DNA of 64,000 nt from Gemmatimonadota bacterium (GTDB lineage: Bacteria; Gemmatimonadota; Gemmatimonadetes; Palauibacterales; Palauibacteraceae): the NCBI GenBank assembly GCA_039584815.1, contig JBDGXC010000007.1, forward strand, positions 8,440-72,439, in the 5' to 3' direction. The notes under the pieces are model-generated. The model made no database searches and was not told the origin of the DNA. It saw only the letters and a program-made list of their open reading frames with translations. This document shows positions 12,901-41,612 of the stretch, in pieces (within the stretch, counting starts at the first letter, position 1; each line of letters begins with the position of its first letter). A program made the translations under genes and the position numbers.

Positions 12901-13558
12901 CGTGATGAATAGAGGCAGGGCCTACGCCGCGTTTACGTACAACGTCGAGAAGCTGGTCCCGTGGCGTACGCTGACCGGCCGCCAGCACTTCTACCTCGAT
13001 CACGAGATGTACCTGGCGTACGGGGAGAACCTTCCGACCTACAAGCCGTCACCCAAGCCGGAGGCGTACGGCGACCTGAAGCAGACGCTGAAGGACGGGG
13101 ACGCGATGATCCTGAACTGTCTCACCCCGCACGGGAAGTGGCACATCCACTCCACGTACGGCGACAACCACCGCATGCTGACCCTTTCGAGGGGCTGCGA
13201 GCCGGTGTGGCTGAGCGAGGTGGACGCCGAGGAGCTCGGCATTCAGGACAACGACTGGTGCGAGGTCTACAACGACCACGGCGTGTACGCCGCGCGCGCC
13301 GCCGTGAGCGCCCGCATCCCGAAGGGCGTGTGCATCGTGTACCACGTGCCCGAGCGCACGATAGGCATTCCGAAGTCGCAGGTGCGCGGCGGCAAGCGGG
13401 CCGGGGGACACAACAGCTTCACCCGCATCCACCTCAAGCCCAATTTCCTGGCCGGCGGCTACGGCCAGTTCACGTACCACTTCAACTACTGGGGCCCCAT
13501 AGCCCCGAACCGGGACACGCACGTCGTCGTCAAGCGGATGGACAAGGTGGAGTTCTGA
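9944..13558 (+). CDS. narG: Respiratory nitrate reductase alpha subunit.
   Basis: 1204 aa. N-terminal FS0 ligand motif [18 protein letters not shown]. Molybdopterin oxidoreductase architecture, and the length is typical of NarG. Confidence 0.95.
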
Positions 13559-13593
13559 TCGCCTCAGGATCGCGCAAGCACGGGAGACTCGAG

Positions 13594-15147
<1,554 letters not shown>

Positions 15148-15148
15148 G

Positions 15149-15865: not shown

Positions 15866-16590
15866 ACGTCCTCAACACTGTTTTCTTCATCGCGTTCCCG
15901 TACGTCGCGATCATGGTCTTCGTGCTGGGGCTGGCGTACCGGTACCGGAGGAAGAGCTTCACGATCTCCTCGCTGTCCTCTCAATTCCTCGAGGGAAGGC
16001 AGCTCTTCTGGGGCAGTGTTCCGTTTCATGTCGGGCTGCTGGTCGTGTTCTTGGGCCACCTGATAGCGTTCCTGCTCCCGCAGGCCAACCTCGCGTGGAA
16101 CCGCGTTCCGGTACGCCTGATCATCCTCGAGGTGACCGCCTTCGTGTTCGGCGTCACCGTGTTCGTCGGCCTGGTCTCCCTCATGTGGCGTAGGCTCACG
16201 AACAGGCGCGTGCGAGCAGTGACCACGCCGATGGACATCGCCATCGAACTGCTGCTGCTGGCCCAGGTCGTGCTGGGACTGTGGATCGCCCTCGGCTTCC
16301 GCTGGGGAGCCTCCTGGTTCGCGGCGGACCTGTCGCCATACCTGTGGTCCCTGGTCACGCTCACCCCGGAGACGACAGCCGTGTTCGCGCTGCCGTGGGT
16401 GATCAAGCTCCATATCCTGGGCGCGTTCGTCCTGGTTTTCATGATCCCGTTCACGCGACTGGCGCACTTCATCGTCGCCCCTCTGCACTACATCGTCAGG
16501 CCGTATCAGAAGGTGATCTGGAACTGGGACCGCAAGGCGATCCGTGATCCCAGGACCCCATGGACGCGGGTGCGTCCGCGCAACAACTGA
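15862..16590 (+). CDS. narI: Respiratory nitrate reductase gamma subunit (dihaem b membrane anchor).
   Basis: 242 aa with five TM helices and conserved His residues. The ATGA overlap with the narJ stop indicates translational coupling. Confidence 0.9.
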   Translation: MNVLNTVFFIAFPYVAIMVFVLGLAYRYRRKSFTISSLSSQFLEGRQLFWGSVPFHVGLLVVFLGHLIAFLLPQANLAWNRVPVRLIILEVTAFVFGVTVFVGLVSLMWRRLTNRRVRAVTTPMDIAIELLLLAQVVLGLWIALGFRWGASWFAADLSPYLWSLVTLTPETTAVFALPWVIKLHILGAFVLVFMIPFTRLAHFIVAPLHYIVRPYQKVIWNWDRKAIRDPRTPWTRVRPRNN

Positions 16591-16651
16591 GGACGGAGAC
16601 GCGCGCCGGGGAGGTCGGGCGCGCCCGAAGGAGCGACAACGGAGGAACTGG

Positions 16652-18286
16652 ATGACTGACGACCAGGGCAGGAGCTGGCCCGACTACTGGGATCCGGAGG
16701 ACGGGGCGTTCTGGGGCCGCGAGGGCAAGCGCATCGCGAACCGGAACCTGTGGATCTCGATTCCCAATCTGCTCCTCGCCTTCGCGGTGTGGATCTACTG
16801 GGGAATGGTCGCCAAGTACATTCAGCAGCTCCACTTCGCCTCCGGCGGCGATCTGTTCAACTTCACGTTCATGAACGGCGGGGAGCCTTACGCCGAAGCC
16901 GGATACCGGGCCCTTCTGTTCACCCTTCCTGCGGTCGCGGGCCTGGCCGGGGCGACGCTTCGGATTCCGAATTCGTTCATGATCGCCATCTGCGGAGGGC
17001 GGAACGTCAAGTTCATGACGAGCGCGCTCCTCATATTGCCGGCGCTCTCCACCGGGATCGCGCTCCAGGATCACACCACTCCGTTCTGGATCTTCATCAT
17101 CCTCGCGGCGCTCTCGGGCGTCGGAGGCGGGGCGTTCGCCTCGTCCATGTCGAACATCAGCTTCTTCTTCCCGAAATCGAAGCAGGGGCTGGCGCTGGGG
17201 CTCAACGCGGGCCTCGGCAACCTGGGGGTCAGCGTCATGCAGTTCGTGATCCCCTGGGTGATCACCTTCCGCCTGTTCGGTGCCCTGAGCGGTGACCCCT
17301 ACGAGCTTCAGGCGGCCGGCGCGCCCTCGGAGATGTGGATCCAGAACGCGAGCCTGGTCTGGGTACCGATCCTCGCGCTGTTCGCGATCCTAGCCTTCAT
17401 GGGCATGAACAACCTTCCCTTCCACAAGGTCGGAGCTACCCCGACCGCCGTCGGGAAATACCTGTGGCTCACGTTTCTCGGATTCGTGGGCGCCGCGGCC
17501 GGTATCGTTCTGCTGATTCTCCCGTGGGGGGGCTTTCCCGTTCTGCTCAAGACATTCGTGGTCGTGGTGGTTGCCGTGGTCGTCACGCTGGCAGGAATGC
17601 GCTACCTGACGCCGCGCGAGACGCGGGAAAGCCTGGACGAGCAGTTCGGAATCTTCAAGATGAAGCACAACTGGATCATGACCTATCTGTACGTCATGAC
17701 CTTCGGTTCCTTCATCGGATACGCCAACGCCTTCCCAAAGCTGATCGACGACGTCTTCGGGGTGATCCGGGTCGGCGAGCAGGCCGGCCAGGCGACGGGC
17801 CTGAGCTCTGCCGCCTACATCTGGATCGGCGCGGGAGTCGGAGCGCTGATCCGGCCCTTGGGAGGCTGGCTGTCGGACAAGCTGGGCGGTGCCCGCGTGA
17901 CCCACTGGGACACGATCGTCATGATCGGGTCGACGATCGGCGCGGGATACGTCGTTTCGCTGGCCCTGCAGTCACCGGACCCGGCGCAGTACTTCTTCCC
18001 GTTCCTGGGCCTGTTCATCGTGCTCTTCGCGACGACCGGCATCGGGAACGGGTCCACGTTCCGCATGATCGGCGTGATCTTCAAGAAGGACAATCGCGGG
18101 CCCGTGCTCGGCTGGACCTCGGCGATCGCCGCGTACGGCGCCTACCTGATTCCGAAGATCTTCGCGACGCAGATCCAGGCAGGGACGCCGCAGAACGCGC
18201 TGTACGGGTTCGCCGTGTACTACGCGACCTGCCTCGCGCTGAACTGGTGGTTCTACGCCCGGAAGAACGCGGAAATCGTGTGTTGA
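16652..18286 (+). CDS. narK: Nitrate/nitrite MFS transporter, copy 1.
   Basis: 12-TM MFS with NarK-type Gly-rich motifs. Starts MTDDQGRSWPDYW. RBS ggagga 8 nt upstream of the ATG at 16652. Confidence 0.9.
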   Translation: MTDDQGRSWPDYWDPEDGAFWGREGKRIANRNLWISIPNLLLAFAVWIYWGMVAKYIQQLHFASGGDLFNFTFMNGGEPYAEAGYRALLFTLPAVAGLAGATLRIPNSFMIAICGGRNVKFMTSALLILPALSTGIALQDHTTPFWIFIILAALSGVGGGAFASSMSNISFFFPKSKQGLALGLNAGLGNLGVSVMQFVIPWVITFRLFGALSGDPYELQAAGAPSEMWIQNASLVWVPILALFAILAFMGMNNLPFHKVGATPTAVGKYLWLTFLGFVGAAAGIVLLILPWGGFPVLLKTFVVVVVAVVVTLAGMRYLTPRETRESLDEQFGIFKMKHNWIMTYLYVMTFGSFIGYANAFPKLIDDVFGVIRVGEQAGQATGLSSAAYIWIGAGVGALIRPLGGWLSDKLGGARVTHWDTIVMIGSTIGAGYVVSLALQSPDPAQYFFPFLGLFIVLFATTGIGNGSTFRMIGVIFKKDNRGPVLGWTSAIAAYGAYLIPKIFATQIQAGTPQNALYGFAVYYATCLALNWWFYARKNAEIVC

Positions 18287-18359
18287 TCGGCGCCCACCCC
18301 GTCCATCGAATCCCGGGCCGGCCGTCCCGCCGGTCCCGCAACACCGGTGAGTCGAGCTC

Positions 18360-19835
18360 ATGAAAGAACAGCGCGGAGCCTGGCGCATACTCGCGCTCAA
18401 CACGATCGCGTTCACGGTCTGCTTCGCGGCCTGGATGCTGAACGGCGTGCTGGTGACATTCCTGGTGGAGAACGGGATCTTCGATTGGGACACGGCGCAG
18501 ATGGGCACCCTGATCGGTATCCCGGTTCTCACGGGCTCTATCATGCGACTGCCTCTCGGGATGCTCACCGACAGGTACGGGGGCCGCCCCGTGTACGCGG
18601 CGCTGATGCTCCTGTGCGCCGTGCCGATGTACCTGCTGAGTCAGGTTAATTCCTACGACGGCTACCTCCTGGCCAGCCTCGGCTTCGGGCTCACGGGCAC
18701 ATCGTTCGCCGTAGGCATCGCCTTTTCGTCGGTCTGGTTCAGCCGTGAGCACCAGGGGACGGCGCTCGGGATCTTCGGAGCCGGAAACGCCGGCGCCGCG
18801 CTGACGGTCATGCTCGCGCCGGGGATCCTGCGGTCTCTCACGAACGGCGGGCAGGATCTGGAGCGCTGGCGAATGCTTCCGCAGTACTACGCCGCCCTGC
18901 TCGTCGGCATGGCGATCGTGTTCTTCCTGTTCACGAAGAACAGGAAACCGGAGGTCGCCTCGCAGCGGACCGTGCTACAGATGCTCGGGCCGCTCCGGAA
19001 CATGCGTGTGTGGCGCTTCGGCCTGTACTACTTCCTCGTGTTCGGCGGCTTCGTGGCCCTGGCACAGTGGCTCGTGCCGTATTACGTGAACGTCTACTCG
19101 ATGACCATCGTCACTGCCGGCCTCCTGACGTCCATCTTCTCGCTTCCGTCCGGCGTGGTCCGCGCCCTTGGTGGATACCTGTCCGACAGGCTGGGGGCAC
19201 GCACCGTGATGTATTGGATCCTGGGGACGATCGGCGTGTGCTGTCTGCTGCTCTTCTTCCCGAAGATGGAGGTCGAGTCGCCGGGCAGCGGGGTCATGGC
19301 CAGGAGGAGCGGCACGGTCACGCGGGTCACGGACGCCGAAGTCCGGGTCGGCGACGACGTGTACACCCTGACCGCGAGGCCGGATGACGAGATCGACGAG
19401 TCACGCGCTCATGTCCTGCCGGTCATACGTTCCTGGCACGTGCCCGAAGTGACCCTCGGCCAGACCGTGGGAAAGCGGACCCTCCTGGCCAGCGGCGTCA
19501 CCAAGATCTTCTTCCAGGCCAACGTCTGGATCTTCACGATCCTCGTTTTCGTCATCGGGATCGCGATGGGAATCGGGAAGGCCGCGGTCTACAAGTACAT
19601 ACCCGAGTACTTCCCAACCGAGGTCGGCGTCGTGGGCGGAGCCGTGGGGGTCATCGGTGGTCTCGGGGGCTTCTTCTGCCCGATCATCTTCGGTTATCTG
19701 CTGAGAGGTATCGGACTCTGGACCACCACCTGGATCTTCTTCTTCCTGGTGACAATGACGTGTTTGATCTGGCTCCACATCACGGTGAAGCGGATCACGC
19801 GGCGGGAGACGGCCATCGAGGCTGTCCAGGCCTGA
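18360..19835 (+). CDS. narK: Nitrate/nitrite MFS transporter, copy 2, carrying a roughly 80-aa insertion between TM9 and TM10.
   Basis: 12-TM NarK-like protein, MKEQRGAWRILALNTIAF... An extra soluble segment, MEVESPGSGVMARRSGTVTRVTDAEVRVGDDVYTLTARPDDEIDESRAHVLPVIRSWHVPEVTLGQTVGKRTLLASGV, is absent from copy 1. Confidence 0.85.
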   Translation: MKEQRGAWRILALNTIAFTVCFAAWMLNGVLVTFLVENGIFDWDTAQMGTLIGIPVLTGSIMRLPLGMLTDRYGGRPVYAALMLLCAVPMYLLSQVNSYDGYLLASLGFGLTGTSFAVGIAFSSVWFSREHQGTALGIFGAGNAGAALTVMLAPGILRSLTNGGQDLERWRMLPQYYAALLVGMAIVFFLFTKNRKPEVASQRTVLQMLGPLRNMRVWRFGLYYFLVFGGFVALAQWLVPYYVNVYSMTIVTAGLLTSIFSLPSGVVRALGGYLSDRLGARTVMYWILGTIGVCCLLLFFPKMEVESPGSGVMARRSGTVTRVTDAEVRVGDDVYTLTARPDDEIDESRAHVLPVIRSWHVPEVTLGQTVGKRTLLASGVTKIFFQANVWIFTILVFVIGIAMGIGKAAVYKYIPEYFPTEVGVVGGAVGVIGGLGGFFCPIIFGYLLRGIGLWTTTWIFFFLVTMTCLIWLHITVKRITRRETAIEAVQA

Positions 19836-19857
19836 GGCGACAGACGGAAGTCGCGAG

Positions 19858-20727
19858 TCAGGTGGCGCGAGAGCGGCTCTCTACGGTGCGCGCCGCGAAC
19901 TTCTCGAACGAAGTGGGCTGACGACCGAGCAGTCGCCGGAGAGCTTCGGAGCTACCGGTGAAATCGTTGCGATCGTAGTAACGGAACATCCGGACCAGGG
20001 CATCGACCTGATACTCTCCGAGGCCGGTTGCCCCTGCCGTCCGCTCCCAGTCTTCCACCTCCTCGAACTCCGCACGAACGGGTCTTCCGAGCTGGCGCTC
20101 CAGAGAATCTGCGATCCCGGTGACCGCGATCGCCTCAGGTCCGCACAGCTCGTACGTGGCGCCCTCGTGTCCCGGCGACGTCAGCACGACTGCAGCCGCC
20201 TCCGCCACGTCCTCGAGATCGACGAGGCTCATCTCGACATCGGTGCCGTACGGGACCCCGAGCACACCACGCCCCACGATCGAGTCCCACTCGGCCAGCA
20301 CGTTCTGCATGTAGGCGCACGGCTGGAGGATCGTGAACTGGAGCCCGGAGTCGCGCAGCCGCCTCTCGACCCCGTGCTTCAGCCAGTGGTGGGGCATCGC
20401 CTCGACGGCCGGCAGGAGCACCGAGTGGTACACGAAGCGTTCGACCCCGGCGGAGCGGGCGGCGGCGATCGCGGATTCCCCGATCGCGACCTCATCCGGA
20501 TGCACGTTCGGGCAGATGTGATAGATCGTCCCGACGCCCGACGCGGCGACGCGGAGCGCCTCCGGGTCACGCATGTCGGCCGCCACGACCTCGCTCGCGC
20601 CAAGCCGTCGCATCGTCTCGAACGCTTCCTCGCGGAACACCAGCGCCCGAACCCGCTCTTCCCGGTCCGCCAGCGCCCGCACCGCTGCACATCCGGTCTT
20701 CCCGGCGGCGCCCGTCACGAGAATCAT
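19858..20727 (-). CDS. NmrA-like NAD(P)-binding protein (atypical SDR).
   Basis: N-terminal Rossmann motif MILVTGAAGKTGCAAVRAL. The ATG at 20727 was chosen over the longer track ORF because the upstream extension is low-complexity. Confidence 0.7.
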   Translation of the reverse strand: MILVTGAAGKTGCAAVRALADREERVRALVFREEAFETMRRLGASEVVAADMRDPEALRVAASGVGTIYHICPNVHPDEVAIGESAIAAARSAGVERFVYHSVLLPAVEAMPHHWLKHGVERRLRDSGLQFTILQPCAYMQNVLAEWDSIVGRGVLGVPYGTDVEMSLVDLEDVAEAAAVVLTSPGHEGATYELCGPEAIAVTGIADSLERQLGRPVRAEFEEVEDWERTAGATGLGEYQVDALVRMFRYYDRNDFTGSSEALRRLLGRQPTSFEKFAARTVESRSRAT

Positions 20728-25925: not shown

Positions 25926-28900
25926 TCACGGCATGGGGCAGCCGCTCACCTCGTAGGCGACCTCGATCCCGTTGGCGTCCTGCGCGAGGTTCTCGTGGCG
26001 CGCCGACCGCTCCTCATCGAGTCCTGACTCGAGCGGCGACACTCCGTTCACCGCGTAGGTCAGCCACAGGCGTCCCACCTCGGAGAAGGCCGCCCGCAGA
26101 TCCTCGCAATCGATCAGCTCTGCCTCGAAGGACGCGGCCGCGGCACGGAACGCTGTCATCGCGGCGATCGTGGAATCGGCAAGCTGGTCCAACGTCCTGA
26201 GGCGTGGATCGGCGCTCGCCGGTACGGCGCCGGGATCCTCCACGGCCGGAACTTCCGCACCGACTGCCGGCGGGAGCACGACTCTGCCCTGGCCGGCCCG
26301 GGCCGCTCCCGGAGTCTCCGCTCCGTCCGATTCGCCGTCCGTGTCCGCCCCCCAGCTGCCTCTGTCGAACACGGTATGACCCGGGTTCAGCTCGGTCCAC
26401 CGCATCACTCTCTCGACCCCGAACGCGCCGGCAGCCAGGATGGCGATGGCCGCTGCCACATTCCCCGCGCCACGGAGTCGCCTTGAGCGCCTCTCGCGCC
26501 TCTCGCGGCGCTCTTCCTCGCGCCGCGCCTCGCGCTTCTCGCGCTTCGCCTCGGCGACCTCCGCCCTCACGCGGGCCTCCGCCTCTGCCTTGCGACGCGC
26601 ATCGGCGTCCGCCACTTCCTGACGCGCGAACTTCACGGCCGCTTCTCGAGCCGCCTCTTCCGCCTGGACACGGGCCGCTTCGGCGGTCGCCCGTCGTCCC
26701 TCCTCCTCCCGTCGCCGCGCGATCTCGCGGGATTCGGCCCGACGGAGCGCCTCCAGCTCGGTGGCCCTCTCCTTTACGGCTTGCTCGAGGCGCGTACGCT
26801 CCATGCGCAGCCTGGACACTTCCTCTCGCGCCAACTCTGCCACCTGGCGGGCCTTGGCCGCCACGCGGGCCGCCTCTTCCTCGGCCGCCTGGCGAGCCTT
26901 CTCGAGCTCGCTCACCCGGGCTGCCGCCGCTTCCTCGGCCTCCTTGCGGCGCTCGGACTCGAGGCGCGCGGTCCGCCAGGCATCCTCGGCTTCCGTCGCC
27001 AGCACCGCGGCACGTTCTTCGGCAACCGCTTTGGCTTCTTCCAGCTCCGTCACTTCACGCGCGATCCGTTCCTCGGTCGCTCGCAGCTCAGCCTCTTCCT
27101 CGACCGTCTTCTGGGCTGCCTCGGCCTGAATCGCTTCTTGTGCGGCGCGCTTTTCGGACGCCTGGCGCATCGCGTCCTCGGCTGCCTGGCGGGCTCCCTC
27201 AAGCTGCAAGGAGCGCCGGGCAGTCTCTTCCTCGGCTGCCTGCCGGAGCTCGGCCTCCCGCGCCGCAGCTTCGACCGCGGCGCGCGCCTCTTCGGCCCTG
27301 CGCTCGGCCTCCAGGCGCGATTCCAAAAGGGATGCTTCGACCTCCTTGACCCGGGCAGCGGCCTCGACCTCTGCGGCACGTCGGGCGTCCTCCTCCTCCC
27401 GCCGCCGGGCGGCCTCGCGTCGAGCCGCCTCCAGCGCCGCCTCCGCCCGCGCGTCCCGTATCGTCGCTTCCTGAGCAGCCGATTTGCGCTCGGCGTTCAG
27501 GGTGCCGGCGATGCGCTCGGCCTCGGCCTCGGCCGCCCGGCGGGCCGCCGCTTCGGCTTCGCGGCGCGCCGCTTCACGGGCTGCCGTGCGACGAGCCTCC
27601 TCGACCTCGGTGGCCCTGCGCGCCGCCTCTTCCTCGGCTGCCTTGCGCGCCGCCTCCAGCTCAGCCGCCTTCTGGATCGCCACCGTCTCGGCGTCTCGGC
27701 GCAGAGCCTCCTCGGATCGGTACTTGTCCGCGTCGGACTGGGCGATCCGGCGAGCCTCTTCCGCTTCACGAGCGCGCTGCTCCGATTCCTCGGCCGTCCG
27801 TCGAGAGAGCTCCACCTCCTCCGCCCGCCGCGCGGCTTCCTCTTCGGCGGCTACGCGCGCTTCCTCGGCGGCCCGGCGGGTTTCCTCGAGCTCCAGGGAT
27901 CTGCGCCTGGCTTCGTCTTCCGCCTCGCGCCGGGCGGTTTCCGCTTCGGCGGCCCATCGGGCGGCTTCTTCCTCCGCTACCTTGCGCGCCGTCTCCATTT
28001 CAGCGACCCGGCGCACGGCGTCGGCGATGGCCGCCTCGTGAGCCTCCGCCTCGGCCTGGCGTCGCTCGGCCTCGCGCTCGGCTGCCTCGCGAGCGGCCTC
28101 CGCCTCGGCGGCCCGGCGGGCCGCCTCTTCCTCGGCGGCCTTGATCGCTGCCGTGGCCTCGGCTGCCTTGCGCTCGGCCTCGGCCTCGGCGGCCCGGCGG
28201 GCGGCTTCGGCGGCCTGGACCGTGGCCTGGAGCTCCGCGGCCTGCCGGGCCGCTTCCTCTTCCGCGGCCTGGCGGGCGGCTTCCAGCTCAGCGGTCCGAC
28301 GAGCGGCCTCCTCCTCGGCCGTCTGGCGGGCGGCCTCCAGCTCGGCGGCTCGACGGGCGGCTTCCGCTTCCGCCTCACGCCGCGCCTCGTCGGCGGCTCG
28401 CAGGGTCTCCTGGAGCTCGGCGGCCTGGCGGGCGGCCTCTTCCTCCGCCACCTGGCGGGCGGCCTGGAGCTCGGCGGCTCGCCGAGCGGCCTCCTCCTCG
28501 GCGGCGCGACGCGCCTCGTCGGCGGCTCGCAGGGTCTCCTGGAGCTCGGCGGCCTGCCGGGCGGCCTCTTCCTCCGCCGCCTGGCGGGCGGCCTGGAGCT
28601 CGGCGGCCTGCCGGACGGTCTCTTCCTCCGCCGCCTGGCGGGCGGCCTGGAGCTCGGCGGCCTGCCGGGCGGCCTCCTCGTCGGCCGCTCGCAGGGTCTC
28701 CTGGAGCTCGGCGGCTCGTCGAGCCGCCTCCTCCTCGGCCGCGCGTCGGGCCTCATCAGCCACCCGCAGCGTCTCCTGCAGCTCGGTCGCCTGCCGCTCG
28801 GCTTCCGCTCCCGCGGCCTGCCGTGCAGCTTCGAGCTCTGCCGCGCGCCGGGCGGCCTCCTCTTCGGCAATCTCGCGGGCCTGGTTCGCGGCACGCAGGG

Positions 28901-30464
28901 TGGCCTCCAGCTCCGAGGCATGGCGCTCGGCCTCCTGCTCGACGGCCTGGCGGGCGGCCTCGAGCTCCGCCGTACGCCGCGCCGCATCTTCCTCGGCGGC
29001 CCGGCGGGCGTGCTCGGCCGCCTCCAGTGTGGTCTCGAGCTCGAGGGCGCGCCGCTCGGCTTCCTCCTCCGCCAGCCTGCGGGCCTGCTGCACTTCTTCT
29101 ACCCGCCGTGCCGCGTCCTGCTCGGCCGCGATTCTCGCCAGCTCCTCCGATCGTCGCCGTTCGGCTTCCTGCTCCGCCGCCTGGCGCGCGGATTCTGCCT
29201 CGGCCGCCTGGCGCGCCGCCTCCTGCTCCGCCGCTTCCCGGGCTTCCTCCTGCTCCGCCACCCGGCGTGCGGCGTCCGCTTCCGTGGCGCGCAGGGCTGC
29301 TTCGAGCTCGGCGACTCGCCCTTCGGCTTCGACCGCCGCCTCGCGCAACGACTTCAGCTCGCTGACGCGCCGATCGGCCTCATGCTCCGCCGCGCGTGCG
29401 GCAGCTTCAGCCTGGCGAGCCAGGTCCTCCGCCTGTCGCCGCTCTTCGGTGGCGCGGGCCTCACTCTCGGGCGGTGCCTCCGATGTGCGCTGGGCCGCTT
29501 CCTGCGCCGCGGTTCGCGCGGCTTCGAGCTCGGCGGCCTTTTGCTCGGCTTCCCGTTCGGCCTCGAGAGCCGCCTCTTCCGCTGCTCTCCGCTGCTGATC
29601 CAGATCCGCGGCGGTCCGGGCAGCGGCGGCCAGCAGCGAGCGCCGCGCGATCTCCTGGGCGAGCGGACTGGAGAGATCCGAACCGCGGCCCGGCCGCCTC
29701 GTGATCCAGGATGGACGCGCGCTCACGCCGGTGCCGTTGCCTTCCGACCGACTCGGGAGCGCCTCCAGGTTCTCGCGGACGATCTCGGCGTCCGTTTGCA
29801 CGTTCGTCCAGTCGAGCAGAGTGCGGCGCTCGCCCTCCGACAGCGACTCCGTCGCCACGACTTCGTGGAAGGGCAGGGGCTTCCTGCCGATGTTGCCTCC
29901 CGATGTCTGGCGGAAGAAACCGCCCCGGGGGGACTCGCCTTCCGGGGCGACCAGCACCGCACTGTGCCACACCTCGCCGAAGTACTTCCTGTGCGTGGCG
30001 ATCTCCGCGTCCGTCAGCTCGATTCCTCCGTCGCGGTGACGCAGGTACCAGCCGACCAGATTGCCGGAAAGCCGGCCGGCTTGCTCGCGCAGGGCGTCCC
30101 ACGCCTCCGGGGGAATCATGTCTCCGGGATCGCTGATCAAGGGGATCCGGGATCGGCATACACCGCTGATCAGGACGTACGGCCGGCCGTCCTCGATGTC
30201 CTCGCACAGGTCACCCGACAGCAGACCGAACGGACGTTCGTTCCTGGAGGCTTTCCGCAGGTGATTCAGGAGGTCCGCGAGGGCGCGCTGCGTGATGAAG
30301 ACGTCGTAGGCTCCCCCGACCGGGTGTTCTTCCGATTCGGAGGGTGTCCACAGGATGCTCCGCAGCAGGGGGCGCGGCACGGATATGTGAAAACGCTCCG
30401 GCGTGCTCCCGGAGTTCACACCTTCATCAGGCTTCGAGCGCCCGTCGACTATCGCATCCGTCAT
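25926..30464 (-). CDS. Giant (1512 aa) membrane-anchored coiled-coil protein. N-terminal degenerate MPN/JAB-like domain, roughly 960-aa repetitive E/A/R-rich rod, one TM helix, and a roughly 230-aa C-terminal domain.
   Basis: Residues about 60-175 match the MPN fold pattern (VFITQRALADLL..FGLLSG...NLVGWYLRHRDGG..TDAEIATHRKYF..VWHSAVLVAP), but the JAMM HxH site is RHR and the Ser is replaced by Thr. The rod is built from units like AEEEAARRAAELEAARQAAE. The TM helix is NVAAAIAILAAGAFGV. Confidence 0.75.
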   Translation of the reverse strand: MTDAIVDGRSKPDEGVNSGSTPERFHISVPRPLLRSILWTPSESEEHPVGGAYDVFITQRALADLLNHLRKASRNERPFGLLSGDLCEDIEDGRPYVLISGVCRSRIPLISDPGDMIPPEAWDALREQAGRLSGNLVGWYLRHRDGGIELTDAEIATHRKYFGEVWHSAVLVAPEGESPRGGFFRQTSGGNIGRKPLPFHEVVATESLSEGERRTLLDWTNVQTDAEIVRENLEALPSRSEGNGTGVSARPSWITRRPGRGSDLSSPLAQEIARRSLLAAAARTAADLDQQRRAAEEAALEAEREAEQKAAELEAARTAAQEAAQRTSEAPPESEARATEERRQAEDLARQAEAAARAAEHEADRRVSELKSLREAAVEAEGRVAELEAALRATEADAARRVAEQEEAREAAEQEAARQAAEAESARQAAEQEAERRRSEELARIAAEQDAARRVEEVQQARRLAEEEAERRALELETTLEAAEHARRAAEEDAARRTAELEAARQAVEQEAERHASELEATLRAANQAREIAEEEAARRAAELEAARQAAGAEAERQATELQETLRVADEARRAAEEEAARRAAELQETLRAADEEAARQAAELQAARQAAEEETVRQAAELQAARQAAEEEAARQAAELQETLRAADEARRAAEEEAARRAAELQAARQVAEEEAARQAAELQETLRAADEARREAEAEAARRAAELEAARQTAEEEAARRTAELEAARQAAEEEAARQAAELQATVQAAEAARRAAEAEAERKAAEATAAIKAAEEEAARRAAEAEAAREAAEREAERRQAEAEAHEAAIADAVRRVAEMETARKVAEEEAARWAAEAETARREAEDEARRRSLELEETRRAAEEARVAAEEEAARRAEEVELSRRTAEESEQRAREAEEARRIAQSDADKYRSEEALRRDAETVAIQKAAELEAARKAAEEEAARRATEVEEARRTAAREAARREAEAAARRAAEAEAERIAGTLNAERKSAAQEATIRDARAEAALEAARREAARRREEEDARRAAEVEAAARVKEVEASLLESRLEAERRAEEARAAVEAAAREAELRQAAEEETARRSLQLEGARQAAEDAMRQASEKRAAQEAIQAEAAQKTVEEEAELRATEERIAREVTELEEAKAVAEERAAVLATEAEDAWRTARLESERRKEAEEAAAARVSELEKARQAAEEEAARVAAKARQVAELAREEVSRLRMERTRLEQAVKERATELEALRRAESREIARRREEEGRRATAEAARVQAEEAAREAAVKFARQEVADADARRKAEAEARVRAEVAEAKREKREARREEERRERRERRSRRLRGAGNVAAAIAILAAGAFGVERVMRWTELNPGHTVFDRGSWGADTDGESDGAETPGAARAGQGRVVLPPAVGAEVPAVEDPGAVPASADPRLRTLDQLADSTIAAMTAFRAAAASFEAELIDCEDLRAAFSEVGRLWLTYAVNGVSPLESGLDEERSARHENLAQDANGIEVAYEVSGCPMP
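26700..29620. repeat. Long imperfect tandem DNA repeat (units of about 54-63 bp with variants) encoding the coiled-coil rod of the giant protein.
   Basis: Near-identical blocks such as ctggagctcggcggcctgccgggcggcctcttcctccgccgcctggcgggcggcctggagctcggcggc recur many times between about 28400 and 28700. Degenerate copies are spread over roughly 2.9 kb. Confidence 0.8.
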
Positions 30465-30716
30465 CGTGGCTCGCTGCTCGCAATGTTCCGGCGCCGCTGC
30501 AAGGGGCGGCCGGCCCCTGGTGAACGCGGCGATGTCTTCGACCGAAGTAGCAAGTGCCGTTCCAGCCGTCCGCCGGGATCCTGAGCACGATCAGGCCGCA
30601 TACTTCGGCCACGGACAGGCAATCTGGCGGGCAACTCGCAACCTCGTGGTGCCGGAAACACGGGTGAAACAGGTGAAGTGTGGCGAAACGCGCAAAAAAG
30701 TGGGCCGGATCGTGCC

Positions 30717-31019
30717 TCACGCCATGTTCCGGGTGGCCTCTTCCGTGATCAGGATGTCGAGCAGGTCACCCACGGCGTTCGCCGCCCGCTCCAGACCCGG
30801 CTCCTGTCGGTGCAGATGCTCGATGCGCGCAAAGACCATCTGTGCGACGGTGAGTTCGAGATACGGAAGGTCGTGCGCCTCTGCGGTGAAGTCGGCCAGG
30901 TCGTCATCGCGGGCCGCCTCGATGAGCCGGAGCACGTTCGGGGGAAGGGAGTCCTGCCCCTTCTCCAGGGCGCCACTCCAATAGGTCGTCCAGTCGTAGA
31001 AGCCGACCTGCATGCCCAT
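30717..31019 (-). CDS. Small hypothetical protein (100 aa), immediately upstream of and co-oriented with the giant coiled-coil gene.
   Basis: [22 protein letters not shown]... Intact 303-nt ORF with high GC3 consistent with coding. No known motif. Confidence 0.45.
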
Positions 31020-33401: not shown

Positions 33402-34160
33402 TCAGTCCCGGGCTTTCGTCTTTCCGTCGAGCACCGCCCGAACGGTCACATGCCACCGGCTCACGCCCGACTCGCCCACCTCGGCGCGAACCCTCGTGAC
33501 CTCGATCTCCTTCAGGCCCGGTAGAACCGTGCGGGTTTCCGCCAACGAGGCCTCCACGGCGTCCTCGAGGGACGTCTCGGAGCTTCCCTGCAGCTCGAGC
33601 TTGACTTCCTGCGAGGCCACCAGGATGTCGTCCGACGAGACGACGGTGGACAGGTACCGCTGACGGGCGCGACGACGCCCTTCCTCGAACGCGCGTCGGG
33701 CGACCTCGTCTCCCAGCCCGAGGTCGTCGCGCAGACGCTTCAGGAATGCCTCCTCGTCAGCCTCCAGGCGGTGATCGGCGAGGACTTCGTCGATCGCCGA
33801 GCCGTAGATGGCGCACGAGACCTCCTCCTGCACCTCGGACGCTGCCACCTCGTCGAGGGCCAGCAGCAGGCGCAGATGCGAGAGATCGGCGGCCTCCTCC
33901 TCGCTGAGCGCCTGGTCCACGAGACAGTGCTCCAGGTAGCGCCGGTAGAGATCACGACAGCTGGACCGTAGTCGCGAGAGATCCGTCCCGTGCCGTTCGG
34001 CCGCCGCGGCGACATCCCGTTCGGTGACGTCCGAGATGTTCACGGCGCCGGCCAACAGGGCTTCCACTTCCCGCGCCGCGGCGCCGCGTGCCCGCCGGGC
34101 GAGGAGCCGCGAACCGAGGCCCCTGTCGGGCGTCGGGCTGTGCTCGAAAGGCCCTGCCAT
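33402..34160 (-). CDS. TerB-like N-terminal domain fused to a C-terminal dodecin-like (flavin-binding) domain.
   Basis: The C-terminal roughly 65 aa (VKLELQGSSETSLEDAVEASLAETRTVLPGLKEIEVTRVRAEVGESGVSRWHVTVRAVLD) fits the dodecin beta-alpha-beta-beta pattern. The acidic helical N-terminal region resembles TerB/DjlA-N. ATG at 34160. Confidence 0.5.
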   Translation of the reverse strand: MAGPFEHSPTPDRGLGSRLLARRARGAAAREVEALLAGAVNISDVTERDVAAAAERHGTDLSRLRSSCRDLYRRYLEHCLVDQALSEEEAADLSHLRLLLALDEVAASEVQEEVSCAIYGSAIDEVLADHRLEADEEAFLKRLRDDLGLGDEVARRAFEEGRRRARQRYLSTVVSSDDILVASQEVKLELQGSSETSLEDAVEASLAETRTVLPGLKEIEVTRVRAEVGESGVSRWHVTVRAVLDGKTKARD

Positions 34161-34286
34161 GTGTGACCTCCGCTTCGATTCGCCACTGCCGGCGCCGGGA
34201 TCCCGGAGCCGAATTGCCCATGACAATGGGGCTACGCCCAGCGGGGGGCAATCGGGTCTCGGGCGATCCGGCGGCCGGCGGTGGAG

Positions 34287-37777: not shown

Positions 37778-39580
37778 ATGGATCGACACCGCGCGGGCGA
37801 TCTCGGCCTGTACCGGCGTATGTTGGCCCAGGCCCGGCCGTACCGGGCTCATTTCGTGGCCTACATGCTGCTGGCCCTGCTTCAGAGTCCCATCGCGCTC
37901 CTGAATCCGGTGCCTCTGAAGATCGTCGTCGACTCCGCCGTGGGCTCGGAGCCGTTGCCGCGGCCGCTCGACGCCCTGCTCCCCGCAGCCTTCGCGGAGT
38001 CCGGGGCGGCGGTTCTCGTGTTCGCGGTGCTGCTGCTCGTCGCGATCGCCCTGCTCGGCCAGCTGCAGTCGCTCGGAAGCCAGCTGGTGCGCACGTACAC
38101 GGGAGAGAAGCTCGTCCTCGATTTCCGGGCGCGACTCTTCCATCAGGCCGAACGTCTGTCCCTGTCGCATCACGACACGCGTGGCGCTTCGGAGTCGGTG
38201 TACCGGATTCAGCGCGACTCCGCGGCAATCAGGAACGTCCTCGTGGACTCCCTGATTCCGTTCGTCTCGGCGATCGTGACGCTCGTCGCCATGCTGTACG
38301 TTACGCTCAGGATCGACTGGCAGCTGGCGCTGGTCGCTCTGTCCATCACTCCGGTCCTCCTGTTCCTGACGGGGAGGTACCGCTGGCGCATGCGGCGACA
38401 GGCGCGCACGGTGAAGAGGATCGAGAGCTCCGTGTGGGCGCTGGCTCAGGAAACGATGGGCGCCCTGCGGGTCGTGAAGACATTCGGCAGGGAGGCGGGG
38501 GAGGCCCGCCGGTTCGCCGATCGGGCGGGGCTCGGGGTGTCGGCCCGGCTCCGGCTGACCGTGGTGGAGGGCAGCTTCGGTCTCCTCATCGGCCTGACGG
38601 TCGCGCTGGGTACGGGAGCCGTGCTGCTCATCGGTACCCGGCACGTGATGGCCGGGCTCCTCACGCTCGGCGACCTGCTCCTCGTGATGGGGTATCTTGC
38701 CCAGTTGTACTCGCCCCTGAAGACGATCAGCCGCAAGGTCACGGGTCTGCAGACGTACCTGGCGAGCGCAGAGCGCGCCTTCGAGCTGCTCGACACGGAG
38801 CCGGACGTCCCGGAGCGTCCCAATGCCCGACCCCTCGACCGGGCGCTGGGAGCGGTCGAGTTCCGCGACGTGTCGTTCGCCTACGAGGGCGGGGAGGCGG
38901 TTCTCCACGATGTCTCCTTCGACGTCGCCGCGGGCAGTCGGGTGGCGCTGACGGGCGAGACGGGGGCGGGCAAGACTACCCTGATCAGCCTGCTGACGCG
39001 CCTGTACGATCCGACCACCGGGTCGATCCTCCTCGATGGGACGGACCTGCGCGATGTCAGGCTTGCCGATCTGCGGGCCCAGTTCGCGGTGGTCCTGCAA
39101 AGCCCGGTGCTGTTCTCGACGACGATCGCCGAGAACATCGCCTACGCCCGCCCGAACGCCGCGACCACGGAGATCGTTGCCGCTGCGCAAGCCGCCGGGG
39201 CGCACCACTTCATCACGGGTCTTGCGAAGGGCTACGATACGCAGGTGGGAGAGCAGGGGATGATGCTGTCGGGCGGAGAGCGCCAGCGGGTCTCCCTGGC
39301 GCGGGCGTTTCTGCGGGACGCTCCGCTGTTGATCCTCGACGAGCCCACGAGCTCCGTGGACCTGGCCACCGAAGCATTGATCCTCGACGCGATGGAGCGC
39401 CTGATGGAGGGGCGCACCGTGTTCCTCATCACGCACCGGCCGAGCTCGCTCAGCGGCTGTGACACGCGACTCGTCATGCGTGGCGGGCGCCTGACCGCGT
39501 CGGCGCGCCCGGACTCTCGGACGCGGCACGCTCCCCCGACGTGGCGCTTTCCGCAGCTGGACTCGGAGGTCGAACGGTGA
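37778..39580 (+). CDS. ABC exporter, fused permease and ATPase (MsbA-like half-transporter).
   Basis: Six N-terminal TM helices. Walker A GETGAGKTT, signature LSGGERQRVSLARA, Walker B LILDEPTSSVD, H-loop ITHR. Confidence 0.9.
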   Translation: MDRHRAGDLGLYRRMLAQARPYRAHFVAYMLLALLQSPIALLNPVPLKIVVDSAVGSEPLPRPLDALLPAAFAESGAAVLVFAVLLLVAIALLGQLQSLGSQLVRTYTGEKLVLDFRARLFHQAERLSLSHHDTRGASESVYRIQRDSAAIRNVLVDSLIPFVSAIVTLVAMLYVTLRIDWQLALVALSITPVLLFLTGRYRWRMRRQARTVKRIESSVWALAQETMGALRVVKTFGREAGEARRFADRAGLGVSARLRLTVVEGSFGLLIGLTVALGTGAVLLIGTRHVMAGLLTLGDLLLVMGYLAQLYSPLKTISRKVTGLQTYLASAERAFELLDTEPDVPERPNARPLDRALGAVEFRDVSFAYEGGEAVLHDVSFDVAAGSRVALTGETGAGKTTLISLLTRLYDPTTGSILLDGTDLRDVRLADLRAQFAVVLQSPVLFSTTIAENIAYARPNAATTEIVAAAQAAGAHHFITGLAKGYDTQVGEQGMMLSGGERQRVSLARAFLRDAPLLILDEPTSSVDLATEALILDAMERLMEGRTVFLITHRPSSLSGCDTRLVMRGGRLTASARPDSRTRHAPPTWRFPQLDSEVER

Positions 39581-40581
39581 GCACGCACGCGCTCGTGGTG
39601 CCACCGGACACGGCGGAAAAGATCCTCCGGTCGTGCATCGAGGACGGCCCGCGAAGGGACTCGATCCCCCCGGGAGGCATCGCCGACCTGAGCGTGACGC
39701 CGTTCGAGGGAACGACTGCGTTTCCGACCTACGTGGTCCGTGTCCGGTGGACGGAAGGAGGGGGGCGCACGCTGTTTCTCAAGACGTTCGGCTCTTCGCA
39801 ACTTCCCAAGCGGCGCCTGGGGGAACGGCGCGAACGAGAGCTGAAGGTGTACCGGGACCTGCTCGACGGCCGGGAGCTCGGGACCGCACACTACTACGGG
39901 GCGATGTGGGATGATGAACGATCACGGTTCTGGCTGCTGCTCGAGTTCGTGGACGCCTCCCAGCTCCGTTCCCTCGGCTTCGACCACTGGGTGCGCGCTG
40001 CGGCGTGGCTCGGACGCATGCAGGGAACGCTGAGCGGGAATCCACCCCGCGGGTCCGACACCGAGCTCCTGGTGTCTCACGATGCCGAGTTCTTCACGGC
40101 CATGGCCCGGGAGGCGCTCGCTGCGGTGACCGGTACCTCGCCTGCCCTGGGATATCGGCTGGCGGCCGTGCTGGAAGACTACGATCGCATCATCGAGGTC
40201 ATGACGACTCAGTCCCGCACGCTCGTGCACGGGTCCTACCGCTCCCAGAACATCCTCGTCGATCCCACCGGAGACCGCGTCTGCCCCGTGGACTGGGAGC
40301 TCGCGGCGTGGGGGTCGCCTCTGTACGACCTCGCCTTCCTGTGCGACGGCTTCCGAGCTCCGCGGCTCCACACTCTGTGGGACGCCTACCTCGACCAGCT
40401 GGCTGCGCATGGCGGCCCCGTCCCCGTCCTCGAGGAGCTACCACGGGTCGTGGAGTGCTTCCGTCTCCACAAGCAGGTGAAGTCGCTCAGCGATTCTGTG
40501 CGCCTGGAGTTCCCGGCTCACTCGGTCGCCAAGCTGGTGGGGCTGGCGGAAGCCATGCGGCCCGGTTGCCGGACGGAGTGA
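39577..40581 (+). CDS. Protein-kinase-fold phosphotransferase (APH/ChoK family, PF01636-like), paralogue 1.
   Basis: Brenner-type catalytic loop LVHGSYRSQNILVD and metal-binding PVDWELAAWGSPLYDLA. The GTG start overlaps the ABC exporter stop (GTGA). Confidence 0.75.
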   Translation: MSTHALVVPPDTAEKILRSCIEDGPRRDSIPPGGIADLSVTPFEGTTAFPTYVVRVRWTEGGGRTLFLKTFGSSQLPKRRLGERRERELKVYRDLLDGRELGTAHYYGAMWDDERSRFWLLLEFVDASQLRSLGFDHWVRAAAWLGRMQGTLSGNPPRGSDTELLVSHDAEFFTAMAREALAAVTGTSPALGYRLAAVLEDYDRIIEVMTTQSRTLVHGSYRSQNILVDPTGDRVCPVDWELAAWGSPLYDLAFLCDGFRAPRLHTLWDAYLDQLAAHGGPVPVLEELPRVVECFRLHKQVKSLSDSVRLEFPAHSVAKLVGLAEAMRPGCRTE

Positions 40582-40587
40582 AGGGTG

Positions 40588-41571
40588 ATGACTTACGTGA
40601 TCGATGCGCGTGAGCACCCGGCCGCCCAGGCCTGGCTTCGGATTCGCGGCAACGGACAGGAGGTGACGGCCGTCACTTCCGTTCGGGGAGCTACGACCCG
40701 TCGGGGCGTGTGGCGCCTCGAGCTCGCGAACCGGGGTCCCTCGCCCGTCATCGCCAAGCGCTGCCTCACGCAGTCGGCGCGCGTCGAGCGCATCGTGTAC
40801 GAGGACGTGCTTCCGGGTCTTCCGGTGTCGGCTCCGCGCTGTTTCGGAGCCTGGGAAGAGAGCTCCGAGTACTCGTGGCTGTTCTTCGAGGACGCCGGCG
40901 CGGAGCGCTTTTCGTCCGCGGATCAGGAACTGCGCGCGCTGGCGGCGCGGTGGCTGGCGGCCTTGCACCTCGGCACGACCGACCTGCGCCTGGGAGACGG
41001 ACTCCCACGGCGCGATGCGGAGCACTACCTGGGCCTGCTGTGTCTGAGCAGGGACACGATTCTGCGCGATCTCTCCAATCCCGCGTTCGACGGCGCGGAC
41101 CGGGCGGTGCTGGACGATGCCCTCGCAGAACTGTATCGGATAGAGTCCGAGTGGCCGCGCGTGGAGCGATTCTGCGATCGGATGCCTTCGGCGCTCGTGC
41201 ACGGCGACTTTCGCTCCAAGAACATCTTCGTGCGTCGCGCGGGCCCGGAAACGGAGCTGCTGCCGATCGACTGGGAGACGGCGGGCTGGGGAGTCCCGGC
41301 CGCCGATCTCGCTCGCTCGAGACACCTGCACGCCGAGCCTGAAGCGGATCTCGCCGTGTACGCGGAGGCGGTGGGCGGCGTGTGGGAGCACGTCGATGAG
41401 ACGGCCGCCCGGCGCCTGTCGGAGGTGGGACTGGTGTTCCGTCGCCTGATGGCCATCGCCTGGGCGAGCGAGAGCCTGCAGTATCCGTGGCCCGTCACGC
41501 CCCTGGCGAGGATCCAGCTCTACGTGTCCGAGATCTCCGATGCCCGTGCAAGGGGAGCCTGGCCGCCGTGA
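40588..41571 (+). CDS. Protein-kinase-fold phosphotransferase (APH/ChoK family), paralogue 2.
   Basis: LVHGDFRSKNIFV and PIDWETAGWGVPAADLA. Starts 7 nt after the paralogue 1 stop. Confidence 0.75.
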   Translation: MTYVIDAREHPAAQAWLRIRGNGQEVTAVTSVRGATTRRGVWRLELANRGPSPVIAKRCLTQSARVERIVYEDVLPGLPVSAPRCFGAWEESSEYSWLFFEDAGAERFSSADQELRALAARWLAALHLGTTDLRLGDGLPRRDAEHYLGLLCLSRDTILRDLSNPAFDGADRAVLDDALAELYRIESEWPRVERFCDRMPSALVHGDFRSKNIFVRRAGPETELLPIDWETAGWGVPAADLARSRHLHAEPEADLAVYAEAVGGVWEHVDETAARRLSEVGLVFRRLMAIAWASESLQYPWPVTPLARIQLYVSEISDARARGAWPP

Positions 41572-41612
41572 GGCGTATGCGTTCCGGCGGCCGAACATCA
41601 GGAAGGAGTCAC

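Follow-up and report, generated by a model that had tools for sequence, protein, structure and literature searches.

A giant membrane-anchored protein of Gemmatimonadota with an MPN-minus head and a very long rod read as helix

The giant gene and its upstream region

The region described here lies within a 64,000-nucleotide stretch of Gemmatimonadota DNA (referred to below as the window) and contains, on the reverse strand, a very long gene and three features upstream of it.

25926..30464, reverse strand: giant ORF, 1512 aa plus stop, with intact ORFs of this layout in at least 14 further species
30549..30564, reverse strand: sigma-54-type promoter, TGGAACGGCACTTGCT, with GG at −24 and GC at −12, about 85 nt 5' of the ATG
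30651..30690, reverse strand: conserved upstream block of phased TTTC[GA]CC-like repeats, from an alignment and 40 unique promoter regions
30717..31019, reverse strand: small acidic ORF of 100 aa, probably 98 aa from Met3 (nt 31013), assigned by conservation

The 1512-residue frame proposed in an initial sequence-only reading is present at 25926–30464, and complete ORFs of the same layout, of 1361–1612 aa, are found in at least 14 other species, which is far above chance. That reading had named an assembly artefact with frameshifts as one result that would undo it; the orthologous ORFs are unbroken in many independent assemblies, which rules out such an artefact, and the giant is confirmed as a genuine, conserved Gemmatimonadota protein of 1512 residues. 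An ORF of 1267 aa on the opposite strand was rejected as a Leu/Gly/Arg-rich shadow, the translation of which is nonsense. The neighbors of the giant gene in the window encode a Na:Ala symporter, a DUF255 thioredoxin-like protein, and a dodecin-like protein, and clustering of all neighboring ORFs revealed no operon partner conserved across the subclades of giants. Pfam and NCBIfam scans, at full length and by domain, gave only a sub-threshold JAB match and weak compositional matches (e.g. to TolA), PADLOC and PHROGs gave no match, and neither Rfam nor a scan for sigma-70 promoters and terminators returned anything in the vicinity of the gene.

The sigma-54 promoter consensus is TGGCAC-N5-TTGCW, from which the promoter upstream of the giant differs at a single position; it has the expected −24/−12 spacing, and the window, in which 0.03 matches would be expected by chance, has no other. 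At 45 loci the related sequence TGGAAC-N5-TTGC occurs exactly once, and in every case it lies just 5' of the rod-bearing gene; every rod-bearing gene for which upstream sequence is available has its own sigma-54-type promoter, in a variant form at one locus. These observations support a conserved sigma-54-type promoter for the rod-bearing genes, an assignment made by consensus and conservation. The nearest subclade shares the block at 30651..30690, which is conserved in part at loci L013 and L024 as well and is possibly an activator-binding site; Pfam scans of 29 ORFs of the window found no sigma-54 activator gene.

The small ORF lies, as was noted from the sequence, upstream of the giant on the same strand. 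With identities of 59–74% in 12 genome loci and further copies in 20 metagenome loci, it is, judged by its conservation, a real gene. It gave no match in Pfam, NCBIfam, or PHROGs, and no significant match to PDB sequences (best E = 0.0062, with no stretch passing). As to the co-occurrence that had been suggested as a check, the ORF adjoins the giant in one subclade only; given this restricted adjacency, and the conserved promoter that the giant has for itself, the role of companion that the small ORF had been given is not established.

The MPN-minus head and the JAMM family

29757..30395, reverse strand: MPN-minus (pseudo-JAMM) domain, residues ~24–236

MPN/JAMM domains are best known from the ubiquitin machinery of eukaryotes and archaea, and the soluble bacterial systems that contain them are few (CysO/Mec, CBASS Cap3, and Bil/Bub). 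The head of the giant has the α/β fold of an MPN domain and shares both this fold and sequence-profile homology with JAMM isopeptidases of the Rpn11/CSN5/BRCC36 type (PF01398, JAB): the family profile matches the PDB sequences of Rpn11 (E = 2.8e-6) and BRCC36 (E = 1.4e-4), and a single-sequence search with the giant reaches Pfam JAB below threshold (E = 0.042). It differs from these enzymes in lacking the Glu, the first His, and the Asp of the motif E-x(n)-H-x-H-x7-S-x2-D, the positions of which are occupied by R77, L141, H143, T151, and E154; thus Glu is replaced by Arg77, the first His by Leu, Ser by Thr151, and Asp by Glu154. The sequence-only reading was right about a degenerate MPN/JAMM site but not about the exact substitution, since GWY-H-S-H corresponds to GWY-L-R-H in the giant and not to RHR. 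Leu, Phe, or Val takes the place of the first His in each of the 15 complete giants, and in none is there a Glu at the position aligned with the catalytic Glu of AfJAMM, while the position of the JAMM Asp is Glu, Ala, Val, or Asp. The giant therefore has an MPN fold without the metal ligands, and the earlier suggestion that the head is a scaffold rather than an enzyme fits this loss in 15 of 15 sequences.

It could nevertheless be argued that the head has kept metalloprotease or isopeptidase activity by employing non-canonical residues such as H143, H158, H167, C87, and C103. Five His and Cys residues (H68, C87, C103, H158, and H167) are invariant in the giant clade, and the canonical Glu is missing as well from many family members in which HxH..S..D is intact, which may mean that another general base serves the family. 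However, H143 is His, Arg, or Ser among the giants, and this variation, together with the invariably hydrophobic replacement of the first His and the variability of the Asp position, makes retained activity very improbable.

The architecture is undescribed in the sense that the whole layout is unmatched in Pfam, NCBIfam, PADLOC, and PHROGs, but it is not the orphan that it had seemed: the giant stands at the derived extreme of a large Gemmatimonadota family, the other members of which mostly carry the JAMM zinc ligands. The family comprises 231 cluster representatives at E ≤ 1e-30 (hmmsearch), and most of the top 150 consist of a JAMM domain, a variable linker, a TM helix, and a C-terminal domain with a GCPRP end, a combination for which Pfam and NCBIfam hold no model. 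The giant belongs to it at both ends, having the extended MPN domain with the motifs RSILW.P, F.TQ, GWY, and PFxE..W.N and, at the C terminus, a single TM helix and then a two-Cys C-domain of ~95 aa with an end of the form ...GCP[RVIM]P. HxH..S..D is retained in most members; the nearest non-giant relatives (P0097, P0101, P0102, and P0108) keep E..HxH..[ST]xxD, and short relatives within the family E..HxH..S..D. Linker length across the family is bimodal, being either at most 523 aa or 962–1138 aa, and the giants, with linkers of 962–1138 aa, are on sequence grounds a derived MPN-minus clade. The comparison thus supports the view that the giant is a derived, inactivated, and hyper-elongated member of a membrane-anchored JAMM family. 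Two paralogues, P0097 and P0099, both with ACE5JR_ locus tags, are present in one MAG, and at the paralogue loci L002, L003, L034, L055, and L056 the paralogue gene is overlapped downstream by a gene for a Big_1/MG4/Invasin_D3-like protein. Within the window, neither an MPN+ paralogue nor a homologue of the Big_1-like genes was found. A search of the literature on JAMM/JAB-domain proteins, in Gemmatimonadetes or with transmembrane segments, found no account of such proteins.

Membrane topology and the rod

25929..26207, reverse strand: periplasmic three-helix bundle, residues 1420–1512, ending in GCPxP and with Cys1453 and Cys1509 conserved
26208..26402, reverse strand: periplasmic low-complexity linker, rich in Gly, Asp, and Pro, residues 1355–1419, from low pLDDT where the model begins
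26403..26459, reverse strand: single TM helix, residues 1336–1354, directly preceded by a conserved GNVAAS motif, from the hydropathy maximum, an 18-orthologue alignment, and positive-inside statistics
26472..29672, reverse strand: Ala/Glu/Arg-rich rod, residues 265–1331, read as α-helix from composition, periodicity, and charge pairs
28042..28997, reverse strand: tandem-repeat core of the rod, with units of 27, 54, and 129 nt (9, 18, and 43 aa), from TRF

The single TM helix proposed from the sequence is borne out by hydropathy and the orthologues, and the part beyond it does lie on the opposite face of the membrane but is 158 aa in size rather than ~230 aa, comprising the flexible linker of ~65 aa and the bundle of ~90 aa. 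The giant has no signal peptide at its N terminus, and its TM helix is preceded by RREEERRERRERRSRRLRG. Among 166 family members the mean number of Lys and Arg residues flanking the TM helix is 4.31 on the N-terminal and 1.31 on the C-terminal side, the N-side flank being the more positive in 153, and 164 of the 166 have exactly two Cys past the TM helix. The missing signal peptide, the positive N-side flank, and the Cys pair together support a bitopic inner-membrane protein in which the head and rod are cytoplasmic and only the C-terminal part of ~158 aa is periplasmic. Fold searches with the C-domain gave only generic three-helix bundles (spectrin, GAT, and syntaxin Habc) and no functional lead, and the C-terminal 187 aa, when searched as a single sequence, matched identical fragments only, a profile being needed to reach the relatives.

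This topology bears directly on the earlier model in which the rod is a TolA-like ruler that spans the periplasm or envelope. TolA is also a bitopic inner-membrane protein, with a TM anchor, a long Ala/Lys/Glu helical domain II, of which the Ala/Glu-rich composition of the rod is reminiscent, and a small globular end domain III, and the giant has a weak NCBIfam TolA match (E = 0.0066; 15.5 bits against a cutoff of 213 bits). In TolA, however, the TM helix is N-terminal and the rod is periplasmic, whereas the TM helix of the giant is near its C terminus and both the flank statistics and the missing signal peptide place its rod in the cytoplasm, on the side of the membrane opposite to the Cys pair. 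The giant also lacks the TolA C-terminal domain and tolQRAB-pal neighbors, and an envelope ruler appears extremely improbable.

The long helical repeat region recognized in the initial reading is present, but it extends over ~1067 aa rather than ~960 aa. Its composition is 32% Ala, 24% Glu, and 16% Arg, with only one Pro-Pro, and Asp plus Glu (25.9%) exceed Lys plus Arg (19.2%), giving a net negative charge. The dominant period is 8.75 aa, and TRF repeats are limited to 28042–28997 and a second stretch at 29167–29267. In its high Glu and Arg content, its many i/i+3 and i/i+4 acid-base pairs, and its paucity of helix breakers and bulky hydrophobic residues (the latter 10.6% of the rod, with no heptad signal or significant periodicity peak), the rod resembles ER/K single α-helices and EAAAR/EAAAK helices. 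It differs from typical single α-helices in being far richer in Ala and in a modest periodicity: Ala and hydrophobic residues taken together give a peak at 3.54 residues with a power of 2.84, as compared with 1.28 ± 0.31 for shuffled sequences (maximum 2.73), or ~5 SD above the shuffles. An Ala-cored coiled coil is therefore a possible alternative to a single α-helix. If the rod were one continuous helix, its contour length would be ~160 nm, but so long a single helix would be flexible, and 160 nm should not be taken as a fixed distance; such a helix would be, to our knowledge, far longer than any described.

Colinear identity of the rod is 50–72% to four orthologues and 27–59% to the L023 protein, as compared with 36% for a shuffled control, and the rod sequence is conserved at least as well as the head. 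This conservation, the net negative charge, and the retention of a length of 962–1138 aa in 14 species despite partial repetitiveness speak for a structural spacer or brush, in which many anchored, negatively charged rods form a cytoplasmic cortical layer or ruler that sets the distance of the membrane from, for example, the nucleoid or storage granules, and the head is a mere dimerization cap with no specific ligand. The heads of the giant clade, however, are ~50–60% identical with 49 invariant positions, which seems more than a cap needs, and the periplasmic domain is conserved too; we consider the spacer unlikely.

A possible tether or scaffold

The reading that we favor, at about even odds (0.5), makes the giant a tether or scaffold in the cytoplasm that is anchored to the membrane, is expressed conditionally, and bears a pseudo-protease as its head. 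Through its TM helix and periplasmic bundle it would be fixed to a partner in the envelope, which for the short paralogues is probably the co-translated Big_1/invasin-like periplasmic protein; the negatively charged rod would carry the head up to ~160 nm into the cytoplasm; and the dead MPN head would bind rather than cleave. Its ligand could be whatever the active relatives act on or, alternatively, an MPN+ paralogue in a heterodimer of the Rpn8-Rpn11 or Abraxas-BRCC36 type. Expression would be conditional and would require an enhancer-binding protein. The division or tethering role mentioned in the sequence-only reading is possible. The cell biology of the Gemmatimonadota is almost unexplored.

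Among the nearest parallels are the eukaryotic MPN-minus scaffolds with coiled coils, Abraxas and ABRO1 (KIAA0157) with BRCC36, and also Rpn8 and CSN6, from which the giant differs in being bacterial and membrane-anchored with a periplasmic domain, and in having a helical region more than 10 times longer. Unlike the Rpn11/CSN5/BRCC36-type enzymes, even the active-looking relatives of the giant are bitopic membrane proteins with a periplasmic three-helix bundle. Polar and tethering landmark proteins with an N-in topology, such as Caulobacter PodJ (compare HubP/FimV), are membrane-fixed scaffolds, and PodJ-type proteins likewise combine an extensive helical or acidic region in the cytoplasm with one TM helix and a small anchoring domain in the periplasm; their periplasmic domains, however, bind peptidoglycan (TPR, PG-binding, and LysM domains), whereas that of the giant is a putatively Cys-stapled three-helix bundle, and no sequence or domain homology to PodJ/HubP/FimV-type proteins was detected.

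The same layout of cytoplasmic binding domain, linker, single TM helix, and small periplasmic domain is found in bitopic anti-sigma factors and sensors, and it could be proposed that the bundle senses an envelope cue or partner protein, that the signal passes through the TM helix, and that the head then sequesters or releases a regulator. The polar Asn conserved in the GNVAAS motif at the TM helix, the coupling of paralogues to periplasmic Big_1 proteins, the response regulators and kinases near the paralogues at L002 and L003, and a promoter suggestive of conditional, sigma-54-type control are in keeping with such a device. A conformational relay through a helix of 1000 residues is implausible, however, no sigma factor or regulator is conserved beside the giants, and signaling would leave the conserved length and sequence of the rod unexplained, so that this proposal is improbable. 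A more far-reaching proposal, similarly improbable, is that the giants and their MPN+ paralogues constitute an unrecognized bacterial membrane-tethered isopeptidase system under sigma-54 control with an Abraxas/BRCC36-like pairing; we know of no ubiquitin-like system in the context of the giant. If true, it would mean that Gemmatimonadota have an undiscovered ubiquitin-like or other isopeptide modification pathway, which acts at the inner membrane and is coupled to a Big_1-type partner in the periplasm.

The conserved sigma-54-type promoter offers an experimental handle on when the giant is produced. Neither the domain libraries nor the literature searched covers this phylum-wide family, the bitopic membrane proteins of which are built around a JAMM domain resembling that of Rpn11, and the occurrence of active-looking and dead members in one lineage provides a natural series from protease to scaffold. 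The uninterrupted charged helical segment of the giants would be among the longest in any bacterial protein, and their conserved length and sequence make them a test case both for telling single-helix rods from Ala-cored coiled coils and for tethers that set distances in the bacterial cytoplasm.

The giant gene and its N-terminal domain

The minus strand between 25926 and 30464 encodes the 1512-residue protein with distinct N- and C-terminal domains that had been proposed in the sequence-only reading. The elements of the locus are as follows.

Features of the giant locus in the window
25926-30464, minus strand: giant ORF, 1512 residues
aa 265-1331 of the giant, minus strand: rod, rich in Ala, Glu, and Arg (32% Ala, 24% Glu, 16% Arg)
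30549-30564, minus strand: sigma-54-type -24/-12 element, from spacer alignment and consensus match
30651-30690, minus strand: phased TTTC[GA]CC-like repeats, ~90-140 nt upstream of the -24/-12 element
30717-31019, minus strand: small ORF of 100 aa, real, conserved at 59-74% identity

The GC content of the window is 64-76%, and the 26-30 kb region is conspicuous in GC and AT skew because the rod is GCN/GAR/CGN-rich. A plus-strand ORF of 1267 aa was rejected as a gene, being a Leu/Gly/Arg-rich shadow of the high-GC repeat. Scanning a single genome for each GTDB species turned up 27 loci, the majority labelled Gemmatimonadota (e.g. Ca. Benthicola, order Ca. Palauibacterales) and a few carrying a generic label only. 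An intact single ORF of 1361-1612 aa, extending from the MPN domain to a GCPxP terminus, is present in 14 species besides the organism of the window, which argues against the earlier concern that the gene might be an artefact of assembly. In the closest long-contig relative (L001:10001-14358, on a 310-kb contig of a Gemmatimonadales MAG), the giant gene is split early in the rod into ORFs of 415 and 1017 aa, and this could be an assembly-error frameshift or a genuine pseudogene. Two contigs of one MAG labelled Akkermansiaceae (L028 and L030) each carry half of a typical Gemmatimonadota giant gene, interrupted in the rod by assembly and 57-69% identical to that of the window; its presence there is probably binning contamination.

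Pfam gave only a sub-threshold JAB match in the giant (E = 0.042, aa 135-161), and a query with aa 1-285 against 5.8 billion proteins recovered 24 relatives, every named one of which is a Gemmatimonadota MAG protein. AlphaFold2, supplied with an alignment of the head (A1), modeled aa ~25-235 at a pLDDT of ~90, and a profile of the domain (A5) matches Rpn11 (E = 2.8e-6) and BRCC36 at the sequence level; the MPN fold of the head is therefore established. When the JAMM positions E...HxH...S..D are assigned by alignment to AfJAMM and Rpn11, they are occupied in the window protein by R77, L141, H143, T151, and E154. Among the 15 complete giants, the first His position is Leu, Phe, or Val in all 15, the Asp position is Glu, Ala, Val, or Asp, and none has Glu at the position aligned with the catalytic Glu of AfJAMM. 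The head is thus MPN-minus, and the catalytic degeneracy suspected earlier is borne out by the replaced motif residues. An unlikely rival explanation is that the head has residual non-canonical catalysis.

The rod, the membrane anchor, and topology

The rod contains one Pro-Pro and five Gly, and its predicted helical nature is read from composition. Tandem repeats (TRF periods of 27, 54, and 129 nt, or 9, 18, and 43 aa) are confined to 28042-28997 and 29167-29267, and the C-terminal half is non-repetitive. The dominant charge periodicity is 8.75 aa, and oppositely charged pairs show strong enrichment at i+3 and i+4; bulky hydrophobics make up 10.6% of the rod with no significant heptad signal, and Ala plus hydrophobics give a modest 3.54-residue peak, ~5 S.D. 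above shuffles. These properties would fit either a very long ER/K or Ala-based single α-helix or an Ala-cored coiled coil, and the putative helix would have a contour length of about 160 nm at 0.15 nm per residue. Linker length among complete family members is bimodal, being either ≤523 aa or, in the giants, 962-1138 aa. The window protein was aligned globally with five orthologues, and identity was scored in 100-aa segments. In the rod it came to 50-72% for four orthologues and to 27-59% for L023, the most distant one, as compared with ~36% for a shuffled-composition control; in the head it was ~50-55%. Residue order is thus conserved in the rod, beyond composition alone. A rod of this length might also make the giant a structural spacer or brush, a rival to the tether or scaffold considered below.

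The hydropathy maximum, taken as the TM segment, lies at aa 1336-1354 and is preceded by RREEERRERRERRSRRLRG and a conserved GNVAAS motif; it is followed by ~65 low-complexity residues and then by a domain conserved through the terminal GCPxP. A profile search with this C-domain found 71 proteins, and AlphaFold with the C-domain alignment gave a three-helix bundle (pLDDT 89). In a set of 166 family members, the 15-residue flanks of the TM contain an average of 4.31 Lys plus Arg before it and 1.31 after it; the N side is the more positive in 153, and 164 have exactly two Cys C-terminal of the TM, which may form a periplasmic disulfide. Together with the hydrophilic N terminus of the giant, these flank charges and the Cys pattern place the head and rod on the cytoplasmic side, leaving only ~158 residues for the periplasm. 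They contradict the rival proposal, made in the sequence-only reading, that the giant is a periplasmic, envelope-spanning ruler.

The upstream region

Alignment of the 252-nt spacer upstream of the giant across eight species revealed an invariant block, TGGAACGGCACTTGCT. The sigma-54 -24/-12 consensus is TGGCAC-N5-TTGCW, and the block has one mismatch to it; it is the only sigma-54-type match in the 64-kb window, where 0.03 is expected. In 45 related loci, TGGAAC-N5-TTGC is found exactly once per locus, always on the strand of the gene and a short distance upstream of the rod-bearing gene, including subclades without the small ORF and the gene for P0099, a rod-bearing family member; L012 carries the variant GGGAAT-N5-TTGC. 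Eight loci whose family members are short or MPN+ gave no match. From this distribution, the giant would seem to be transcribed from a conditional promoter of its own, without reliance on the small ORF. The TTTC[GA]CC-like repeats, conserved in the nearest subclade and in part elsewhere, may bind an activator; among the window ORFs scanned, none was recognized as an enhancer-binding protein gene.

The small ORF is a real gene, which probably starts at Met3 (31013) because its orthologues begin MQV...; searches gave no significant match to any family or structure. In 12 of the 27 genome loci it is found ~300 nt upstream of the giant (6 kb off in L011), and a metagenome search starting from it found the giant directly downstream in 18 of 20 loci, the remaining two having insufficient flank; all of these loci belong to one subclade with a ~10-gene syntenic block. 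About nine other giants lack it in the 4-8 kb upstream. The gene noted earlier stands, on the same strand and co-occurring within a subclade, with a putative role as a companion. With its listed start at 31019 (minus), the small ORF overlaps by 8 nt (31012-31019) a divergent DUF255/thioredoxin-like gene listed as starting at 31012 (plus); the DUF255 domain begins at aa 91, and the true start of that gene is probably further downstream.

Family members, neighbors, and possible partners

A search of 1.84 billion cluster representatives with the head profile (hmmsearch) gave 231 matches at E ≤ 1e-30, rising to 1009 at E ≤ 1e-10. Among the best 150 of these, a recurrent layout starts with the JAMM domain at the N terminus and continues through a linker that varies (Pro-rich, Glu/Pro-rich, or Ala/Glu/Arg-rich) and a single TM to a two-Cys C-domain ending in ...F..SGCPRP; ~190-aa proteins with only a short cytoplasmic tail, TM, and C-domain also exist. 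GWYH[ST]H...S..D is retained in most family members, and a subset that includes the closest non-giant relatives (P0097, P0101, P0102, and P0108) also retains the catalytic Glu, which in many others is replaced by Gly, Ser, Ala, or Thr. The many that keep HxH..S..D with such a substitution also share an acidic G[DE]LxE[CD] strand close by and may use another general base. P0099 looks like an intermediate, since it combines a rod and an intact HxH..S..D with Arg in place of the Glu; it shares one MAG with P0097, showing that paralogues coexist. In the annotation of the source pipelines, family members are called "hypothetical protein," "proteasome lid subunit RPN8/RPN11," or "TonB," and a literature search found no description of membrane-anchored JAMM proteins of this kind. 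The giant is a new architectural variant within a known fold family.

Genes around the giants are housekeeping genes that differ by subclade, and clustering of all flanking ORFs identified no conserved partner. Directly downstream of short paralogues, with its start overlapping the paralogue's stop, is a gene for a ~500-aa secreted Big_1/MG4/Invasin_D3-like protein, an arrangement seen after both MPN-containing paralogues and proteins with only the TM and C-domain.

Big_1/MG4/Invasin_D3-like genes
L002:8646-10127
L003:4693-6192
L034:7218-8759
L055:5536-7167
L056:5591-7171

This overlap suggests that the periplasmic bundle works with the Big_1-like protein in those paralogues, and the latter is probably the bundle's periplasmic partner. 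Neither a Big_1-like homologue nor an MPN paralogue is encoded in the 64-kb window. The L034 pair lies within an exopolysaccharide cluster (Wzc-like GNVR, Poly_export, glycosyltransferases). At L055:3202-5582, tandem genes encode a 524-aa JAB-family member and a 193-aa tail/TM/C-domain-only protein (P0062, on at least 24 contigs); their conserved FBA-YtxH-BrkB...dnaX-ybaB-recR neighborhood recurs in L032 and L033, which points to a core orthologue separate from the giants.

Elsewhere in the window, 33402-34226 (minus) encodes a 274-aa protein with a Tic110-like or armadillo-like helical region and a C-terminal dodecin domain; in the nearest subclade this gene and the giant locus are syntenic. 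At 39541-42653, three APH/EcKL-type phosphotransferase genes stand in a row, preceded by an ABC exporter and a fused GH2-like/GT2 glycosyltransferase of 868 aa. The 12 kb at 8001-20000, where GC falls to 0.64 (from 0.66-0.70 on either side) and the AT skew swings strongly, encode a cytochrome c, a 1204-aa molybdopterin oxidoreductase, a Nar-β-like Fe-S subunit, and two MFS transporters and may be an acquired respiratory island.

The fold and catalytic-residue loss, topology, family membership, and conservation of rod length, rod sequence, and the promoter motif are shown by computation. The giant itself would be a membrane-anchored cytoplasmic tether or scaffold, whose dead head may bind a ligand or an MPN+ paralogue and whose periplasmic bundle may anchor it to, or couple it with, an envelope partner; a signaling device is a less likely rival. 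The giant is of interest chiefly as an entry to an uncharacterized, phylum-wide family and for its unusually long, conserved, putatively helical rod.
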